Part shown: positions 6,305-7,390 of the stretch, piece after piece
Layout of the letters: each line of letters starts with the position of its first letter
Position numbering within the stretch: the first letter of the stretch is position 1
NCBI GenBank assembly: GCA_029856525.1
Contig: JAHQXC010000034.1
Coordinates: forward strand, 1-12,839
DNA: 12,839 nucleotides
Reading direction: 5' to 3'
Origin: Candidatus Odinarchaeia archaeon
Lineage (GTDB): Archaea > Asgardarchaeota > Odinarchaeia > Odinarchaeales > Odinarchaeaceae
Program-made: the position numbers and the translations under genes
The notes under the pieces: model-generated
Databases searched by the model: none
The model's input: only the letters and a program-made list of their open reading frames with translations
What the model was told of the DNA's origin: nothing

Positions 6305-7390
6305 CTACTCGTATCCCTCCATTAAAAGCTCTAAGTGGCGTATCGCTTGTTTTTGATCGATTAAACCTTCATTCCATTTCTGTCTTATAATATCTATGAG
6401 ATACTCGGGGAAAAATTGGATAAATAATATATGGGAGATTAGACAAACCCATTCCTGCCCGTTGTCATCGGATATGATTCTGATAAGATTTTTCTCCTGA
6501 AGTCTGTTAACTATCTTTTTAATTTGAGTTTCTGGAATATTAAAAGAAGAGTATAACTCACTTTTTAAAACAGGTTTAGATCTTAACACTCTTATTATAT
6601 TATATGTATCCGGGTCAGCTACAAGAGTTGATAGCTCGGAGATATCTTCAGCGCTAGGATTATAGGTTGAAAAAAATTTTTCAACTTCTTGAAGATATTT
6701 CGCTGATATTTGAGGGTTTAAAACACCTTTTTTAGAGGCTGAGATCAACTCTTTAACAGGGGCTCTTAACGCGAAAACGTCTTTGATTAAGAATATGCAT
6801 TCGTCTGTAATCCCTTCCACGAAAGATGTGCGAACTAAACCTGTTTTTATGAAAGGTGATAGAGCTGCGTTAAGATCGGTTACATCCATGTTTTTATGTT
6901 CTTTAAGCCAGTCGATGAGTTCACGTCTAGTTACACTTCCCTCCGTTAACCTTGAAAGGATAGCCACTCGAAGAGGATCGCTGAATATTAACGCTAACCG
7001 TTGCTCGGCTTCTATAACAGGGGTTTTCGTTATTCTCTCATATTCGCGGACCACTATTTCATAGAATCCGGGTGTTTTAAATTTCTCTAAAATGTTAACA
7101 GCGACTTCGACAAGTATCTCTTCGAATAATTCAGGGTCTTCGTCTCGCTCAAGTATGAGTGAAACACAAAACTGTCCTATTTCACCTTTTAAAACCCCGG
7201 AATAATAGCTGGCTACATTTAAATCCTCTATTTTCATGCTGAGAAAACCTTGCGTAACATCGCCTAAAGTATGAGTGGTGAAAATACGCATTACATGATC
7301 ATCGCTTACCTGTAATTCAGGCGGATATTTAGCTTCCACGATCGCGCCTAGTTTATCATCCCATCTAATTATAATTAAACCTTTAGGCAT
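6305..7390 (-). CDS. Longin/uDENN-like domain + two tandem winged-helix domains (NPRL2/NPRL3-like architecture)
   Basis: Start moved to the ATG at 7390 (MPKGL..., 361 aa) because the 19 extra codons in the ORF track run through AT-rich promoter-like DNA. N-terminal [19 protein letters not shown] matches the uDENN/longin opening hairpin (FD-x-x-x-GP-x-x-x-x-x-YP type). Two WH repeats begin DPLRVAIL and DPDTYNII. Confidence 0.82.
   Translation of the reverse strand: [361 protein letters not shown]

Follow-up and report, generated by a model that had tools for sequence, protein, structure and literature searches.

The stretch of DNA analysed here (the window, 12,839 nucleotides of contig JAHQXC010000034.1 from an Odinarchaeia archaeon) carries on its minus strand the gene of a longin protein with tandem winged helices, called LWW below, together with a small conserved gene and the gene of a giant surface protein (Table 1). 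The LWW reading frame starts with an ATG at position 7390 and ends with a stop codon at 6305–6307, and its homologues share the start methionine. Among named relatives OdinLCB4_001135 of Ca. Odinarchaeum yellowstonii is closest (75% identity), and all named homologues are from Asgard archaea and annotated as hypothetical or ArsR-like. Scans for promoters and terminators at the locus gave results at chance level. The small gene follows this LWW subfamily in Odin, Hel, and Atabeya genomes. The Odinarchaeum genome also encodes a full-length paralogue (contig C2, 228–1328, 35% identical) and three relatives that consist of a longin only or are fused to TrmB. As contigs C47, C20, and C2 adjoin one another in O. 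yellowstonii, the two paralogues point apart with about 11 kb between them.

Elsewhere in the window (7488–10175, minus strand) a block of three genes encodes proteins of 416 and 256 residues without a family match and then a JAB/MPN protein with a C-terminal transmembrane helix. Odinarchaeia and Freyarchaeum share the whole block, and its first two genes are also found in Atabeyarchaeum, where a stand-alone longin gene is next. A PHP-like gene (11609–11896, minus strand) seems shorter than its orthologues of 191–202 residues, which may reflect a frameshift or an upstream start.

Table 1. Features of the LWW locus (window coordinates).
Feature	Position	Strand	Basis
Gene for 361-residue longin + tandem winged-helix protein (LWW, putative adaptor)	6305..7390	-	ORF, homologues, model
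LWW longin/uDENN domain, residues 1–122; outside predicted tail interface	7025..7390	-	model, structural alignment
LWW W10-D11-x-x-x-G15 motif, spacing of C9orf72 W33-D34...G38; A16 in place of GP-motif P	7346..7363	-	
LWW winged helix 1 (WH1), residues 128–203	6782..7009	-	model
LWW strand and three-helix linker, residues 204–258; conserved D204, R209, P211; within predicted tail interface	6617..6781	-	
LWW winged helix 2 (WH2), residues 260–319; ArsR/TrmB-like fold, recognition helix not basic	6434..6613	-	
LWW C-terminal strand, FFPEY motif and two helices, residues 320–361; core of predicted tail-binding clamp	6308..6433	-	
Conserved small protein, 137 residues, between LWW and surface gene; probable winged helix	5876..6289	-	no family match
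Surface protein, 1551 residues, two genes downstream of LWW	828..5483	-	annotation and profile search
Conserved membrane-proximal cytoplasmic tail of surface protein, residues 1353–1417; predicted LWW ligand	1233..1427	-	

Fold of LWW and its relation to GATOR1

An AlphaFold2 model made from 51 sequences (pLDDT 91.2, pTM 0.82) has a longin domain, two winged helices and a C-terminal helical clamp. The longin consists of two strands (residues 4–11 and 15–22), a helix (30–43), three strands (48–54, 57–67, and 72–80) and two helices (86–102 and 109–122), the last being a second C-terminal longin helix; the beta-beta-alpha-beta-beta-beta-alpha pattern and the two winged-helix repeats that a preliminary description had read from the sequence are both present. 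A strand follows each winged helix and two helices close the protein. The C-terminal half modelled alone reached a pLDDT of 95, and the C-terminal strand and helices, missed in the preliminary description, hold the best-conserved motif of the family.

The LWW longin superposes on NPRL2 chains with Z 12.4–12.7 and an rmsd of 2.7–2.9 Å over 124–125 residues, and residues 1–126 are the only part of LWW superposed on NPRL2 by structural alignment. NPRL2 is, tied with the Loki longin 8yqg, the closest solved longin and ranks above FLCN/FNIP, VAMP7, DENND1, and the adaptins; the other GATOR1 chain gives Z 11.7. With the whole model, the top eight Foldseek matches were GATOR1/SEA chains, aligned over their entire length (E 2e-4 to 1e-3), at a TM of only 0.2–0.28 and an rmsd of about 20 Å. 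The NPRL2-like longin that had been proposed is borne out by these searches, and LWW has the same domain order as NPRL2/NPRL3 (yeast Npr2/Npr3 of GATOR1/SEACIT), i.e., an N-terminal longin of the same subtype followed by winged-helix repeats in a protein of similar size. The human NPRL2 fragments used for that comparison agree exactly with PDB 6ces_N (residues 11–31, 63–90, and 189–268). A DENN (cDENN/dDENN) module is absent after the longin, where the model has the two winged helices. NPRL2/NPRL3 act near small GTPases, as LWW would on our reading; LWW differs in ending in a predicted tail-binding clamp and in being coupled to surface proteins.

The resemblance is not mirrored in sequence. 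Identity of LWW to NPRL2/NPRL3 is 8–12%, Pfam NPR2/NPR3 is not among the matches listed for 92 family members, and a search of the Odinarchaeum genome with PF06218 gave zero matches. Comparison of the family with 68 fungal Npr2 proteins by hhalign, made with the fungal profile only and without a secondary-structure term, gave a probability below 1%, within the shuffled range, and PDB sequence searches with the protein and two profiles returned weak single winged-helix matches and no NPRL chain. GATOR1/SEA chains were likewise absent among the 50 matches listed in the fold searches with the C-terminal half, which is still compatible with kinship. The expectation that Foldseek would point to GATOR1 held for the whole model and the longin; the winged helices matched ArsR-type folds first. 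Consequently, specific kinship of the winged helices with the NPRL2/3 C-terminal domain is not supported, the Npr2 profile–profile comparison being at background, and no statistic backs the alignment of WH2 to NPRL2 189–240 that had been made by hand.

The beta4–beta5 loop of LWW (S64–Q73), in which NPRL2 has R78 (register by counting), contains no arginine, and neither does that of the paralogue; 15 of 92 family members have an arginine in this loop, at five different positions. Without an arginine finger LWW is expected to be a scaffold rather than a catalytic GAP, as had been suggested. The G and P of the first hairpin occur in the family at the NPRL2 spacing; G15 is kept in 86/92 members, while residue 16, a proline in 18/92, is alanine in LWW, so that this copy itself lacks the GP motif. 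LWW is thus not a GATOR1 subunit, as it lacks both arginine finger and GP motif, is not linked to Npr2 by sequence or profile, and has winged helices that best match ArsR-type folds, and a GATOR1-like role in Rag control is not supported; it is NPRL2/3-like in design.

NPRL2-like families in Asgard archaea had been supposed to be known already, and they were indeed reported in 2020 (Liu et al., bioRxiv 10.1101/2020.10.19.343400). Those of Fig. 5c resemble LWW in having an NPRL2-like longin with a C-terminal domain and in being fused to signalling domains; they differ in occurring in most Thor and few Loki genomes and in being tied to two-component signalling, and the paper's text is silent on surface proteins. 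Asgard FLCN/SMCR8-type longins (PMC12290439) share with LWW a fold kinship to eukaryotic GAP longins; these keep GP and the arginine finger and occur in Heimdallarchaeia, whereas the LWW family has no conserved arginine finger and was not found in the Heimdallarchaeaceae searched (see below).

Surface proteins and their cytoplasmic tails

The outer part of the 1551-residue protein has an N-terminal signal or hydrophobic stretch, 44 N-glycosylation sequons and weak Ig-like matches. One transmembrane (TM) helix near residues 1324–1346 is followed by a cytoplasmic part of about 200 residues, which includes a conserved membrane-proximal tail. Such tails share about 65 residues with the aligned motif KIPxFVKKIRxxKKxIK...KEE, including an invariant proline, and their mean charge is +6.6 vs. 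−10 for LWW proteins. Behind the conserved tail (window 828–1230, minus strand) lies an acidic region, in which two helical repeats resemble each other (LPSDERELLLKSI and LPVEEQNKFLEKL types) and which is retained in Odinarchaeum relatives.

The adjacency of LWW and tail genes is observed repeatedly. In Lokiarchaeia the LWW gene follows, at −1 to a few bases, genes whose products of 1200–2600 residues have a signal peptide, a single TM helix late in the chain, and a short tail, and LWW is itself the cytoplasmic end of TM proteins of 965–3009 residues in 7 of 90 copies and in nine more among cluster representatives. A second order of fusion, with the tail after LWW, is found in one Thor-like protein (P0096, hhalign prob 96.5). 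Altogether, 39/90 distinct copies are fused to a tail protein or located at most two genes from one, counted over loci many of which have only 1.5 kb flanks, and the spacing is −1 to 32 nt in 19 of 20 direct gene pairs. This association is seen again in different clades of the tree. No tail gene lies near the Helarchaeote orthologues of the LWW copy studied here, or near some of its orthologues in Loki genomes. At one locus (L063–L064, G209:C9:430000–465000) five tandem copies of a surface protein of 2650–2680 residues are encoded, which has LWW fused at its end.

A model of TM helix plus tail, from which Odinarchaeum sequences were left out, matches exactly two of the 5444 ORFs in the Odinarchaeum genome (E 4e-6 and 8e-6), i.e., the 1551-residue protein and one encoded on contig C20, each of which adjoins one LWW paralogue. 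A model of the tail without the TM helix, also built without Odin sequences, missed the tail in the window, which was found once the TM helix was included; in profile–profile comparison this tail gave a probability of 86 and a score of 29.9 vs. a shuffled maximum of 17.5.

The two proteins are also distributed alike. The LWW profile matches 182 of 251 Asgard genomes, including all Thorarchaeia (60/60), the large Loki family (54/54), and Freya/Jord, Atabeya, Hel, and Odin genomes, and the TM plus tail model matches 173 of the same 251 in a near-identical family pattern with the same families missing. LWW had no match in 25 of 26 Heimdallarchaeaceae genomes searched, in Borrarchaeum, or in five further families, of which one or more cluster with Heimdallarchaeum. 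The sole Heimdallarchaeaceae match, a Loki-type LWW and surface gene on a 2.5-kb contig (L079, G204:C317), nests in the Loki clade and is probably mis-binned. The label 'Hodarchaeota', which NCBI gives to P0012 and family f12, was disregarded, as it conflicts with the GTDB placement and the uL11 tree. The co-absence of LWW and tail largely reflects one or two clades, and therefore not many independent events. The copy number of LWW, from 1 to 8 or more per genome, tracks duplications of the surface proteins. In addition, a stand-alone longin of the LWW subfamily (L003:5199–6337, G000:C119) is encoded 11 bases before a KaiC-like ATPase gene.

From this context the partner of LWW is most likely the inner tail of giant surface proteins. 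In agreement with this, the modelled complex of LWW with the tail of the 1551-residue protein scored 0.83, vs. 0.00 for the best of three controls, where the score is a model confidence obtained with input alignments made in this analysis, and 58 of 80 solved pairs, as opposed to 2 of 110 mismatched ones, come up to the mark used for it. Between runs, 85% or more of the contacts agreed, with a partner pLDDT of 76 or higher. The predicted interface comprises LWW residues 204–245 and 324–360 and does not involve the longin. It includes D204, P211, P328, Y330, L353, and L356, which rank with the best-conserved positions, and as a whole is only slightly more conserved than the remaining residues (2.34 vs. 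1.99 bits, p 0.04). No solved structure is related to the tail by sequence, which makes recall of a known complex unlikely. The model thus supports, and does not show, binding of LWW to the tail. No paper on this pairing was found in a literature search that covered few subscription papers. It is probable that LWW serves as a cytoplasmic, non-catalytic adaptor of giant single-pass surface proteins, which links their tails to small GTPases.

Winged helices and DNA binding

Searched alone, the C-terminal half of LWW matched single ArsR-type winged helices first (Z 8–9), with a superposition on SrnR at Z 9.0 and an rmsd of 2.2 Å over 79 residues. All Pfam and NCBIfam matches are below cut-off, NF033788 (2e-5) being far below, and LWW thus shares the fold of ArsR/TrmB-type regulators without a family-level score. 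Weak Pfam matches, among them HVO_A0261_N and a sub-threshold one of 33 residues to Clenterotox (E 0.008), were taken as chance or generic HTH matches.

It is conceivable that LWW is a membrane-held transcription regulator, the winged helices of which bind DNA and which the surface-protein tail retains until a signal frees it, perhaps in the manner of Mlc on the glucose transporter or, for the fused forms, of ToxR. Such a regulator would share tail binding with an adaptor and differ in its output. The fit of WH2 to ArsR/TrmB/MarR folds and the NF033788 match point in this direction, as do the fusion of the same longin subfamily to a TrmB regulator in the Odinarchaeum genome, the fusion of the WH-WH-clamp half to helix-hairpin-helix repeats, and the fusions of NPRL2-like longins to prokaryotic signalling domains described by Liu et al. 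(10.1101/2020.10.19.343400). However, the DNA-reading helix and wing are not basic: the mean net charge of recognition helix plus wing is −0.9 and −1.3 in an overall acidic protein, which weakens this explanation, and the exposed positions of WH2 helix 3 are poorly conserved, conservation being located in the longin motif and the clamp. As the GTPase gene neighbours (see below) would also be left unexplained, a role in transcription appears improbable.

The tandem winged helices can also be compared with those of ESCRT-II, and LWW might then act in sorting or quality control along a ubiquitin/ESCRT-like route and, together with the JAB/MPN protein, remove or recycle surface proteins. The JAB/MPN gene is located directly upstream in Odinarchaeia and ESCRT-II Vps22 is among the weak Foldseek matches (E 0.01, TM 0.2), but this match is no better than those to generic winged helices, and the JAB operon lies apart from LWW in Freyarchaeum and is absent beside most copies. 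We consider this explanation very improbable.

Several LWW relatives have other architectures. The TrmB fusion in the Odinarchaeum genome (L002:5435–6820, G000:C21) consists of an LWW-type longin, a TrmB winged helix, a coiled coil, and a C-terminal domain, i.e., it is a longin-bearing transcription regulator. In P0182, P0185, P0196, and P0199 the winged-helix/clamp half stands without a longin behind the helix-hairpin-helix repeats, and tandem genes at L121:826–7063 (P0157 and P0140) encode a whole LWW joined to a SIR2-like domain and TPR repeats, with a histone gene adjoining.

Longin domains and small GTPases

The first hairpin of the LWW longin carries W10, D11, and G15, kept in 54, 52, and 56 of 57 sequences, respectively, at a spacing identical to that in C9orf72; across the family W[DN]xxxG is found in 72/92 members and the full WDxxxGP in 16/92. 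The W-D motif of C9orf72 touches ARF1, and mutation of W33-D34-x-x-L-G38 nearly abolished the ARF1 GAP activity of its complex (10.1101/2021.04.13.439632), whereas the GP motif is a feature of GAP longins (PMC12290439). As LWW has the hairpin motif of C9orf72, no arginine finger, and a GP motif reduced to Gly, it is on the best reading likened to the non-catalytic half of a longin GTPase platform. C9orf72, the non-catalytic longin of the C9orf72-SMCR8-WDR41 Arf GAP, also lacks an arginine finger, and by analogy an Arf-like GTPase would be the likely client of LWW. Both may further be held at membranes by the tail or loop of a membrane protein, through WDR41-PQLC2 for C9orf72 and by prediction for LWW. 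The two differ in that C9orf72 has a DENN domain in place of winged helices, the fold match being weaker (Foldseek E 0.009–0.015), and in that no SMCR8-like, arginine-bearing partner was found for LWW.

The dozens of longin proteins and small GTPases encoded by Asgard archaea have been called difficult to match to partners, and longin-GTPase fusions were reported in 2024 (PMC10933270). A longin-fused Arf-like GTPase is encoded at most two genes from 34/90 distinct LWW copies in several separate clades, counted over the same loci with often short flanks, and is unlinked to LWW in the Odinarchaeum genome (C85:5665–6573). The P-loop, DxxGQ, and NKxD of these neighbouring GTPases are intact, and no arginine finger was seen in their longins.

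Intact GTPase neighbours would also suit a true archaeal GATOR1/CSW-like GAP, in which the two paralogues form an NPRL2-NPRL3-like longin heterodimer that speeds GTP hydrolysis on a Rag/Arf-like GTPase. GATOR1 chains as the best structural matches, a paralogue pair 11 kb apart and the C9orf72-like motif, complete with GP in some members, argue for such a GAP. On the other hand, an arginine is missing from the loop of both paralogues and most members as well as from the neighbouring GTPase longin, the Npr2 profile gave no match, and a copy number that follows the surface proteins does not suggest a fixed pair. It is therefore quite improbable that LWW is a GAP of this kind.

As an adaptor, LWW could work as follows. 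The basic amphipathic helical tail just inside the membrane would dock in the C-terminal half (WH1-linker-WH2-clamp) of the acidic LWW, as predicted by the complex model and backed by the fusions. Docking would keep the longin at the membrane and free to pair and bind. Gene order and known longin dimers suggest that it would pair with a second longin and present the WD motif to a small GTPase, for which the neighbouring longin-fused Arf-like GTPase is the likeliest candidate. The output of the module may be the placing or sorting of surface proteins or signalling from them.

In eukaryotes, the tails of membrane proteins are bound by adaptors in cadherin-catenin and integrin-talin pairs and in AP complexes, which act with cargo tails and Arf1. 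The likeness to LWW is one of logic only, i.e., a variable outer protein, a conserved inner tail, a soluble adaptor and a small GTPase, and no homology was shown except for the longin fold common to AP sigma/mu subunits (Z 8–10). If the adaptor reading is true, archaea that lack internal organelles had a receptor-tail/adaptor design like that of eukaryotes. It is tempting to speculate that a three-part module common to most Asgard classes, of giant surface protein, LWW and longin-Arf-like GTPase paired longin to longin with a WD contact, was a forerunner of membrane-recruited longin-dimer GTPase regulators, and that LWW is co-ancestral with NPRL2/NPRL3 over its whole length. This remains rather doubtful; a direct line to eukaryotic NPRL2/3 is weakened by the failure to find the family in the Heimdallarchaeaceae and allied genomes searched. 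With a named candidate ligand, an interface predicted down to specific residues, and a GTPase suggested by gene order, the family allows a direct test with small soluble thermophile proteins.

In Freya/Jordarchaeia the LWW-GTPase gene pair is followed by a gene for a coiled-coil protein of about 110 residues with an amphipathic-looking N-terminus (L077:7221–7550, L049:7974–8291, and others), and in one Odinarchaeia family this gene follows LWW alone.
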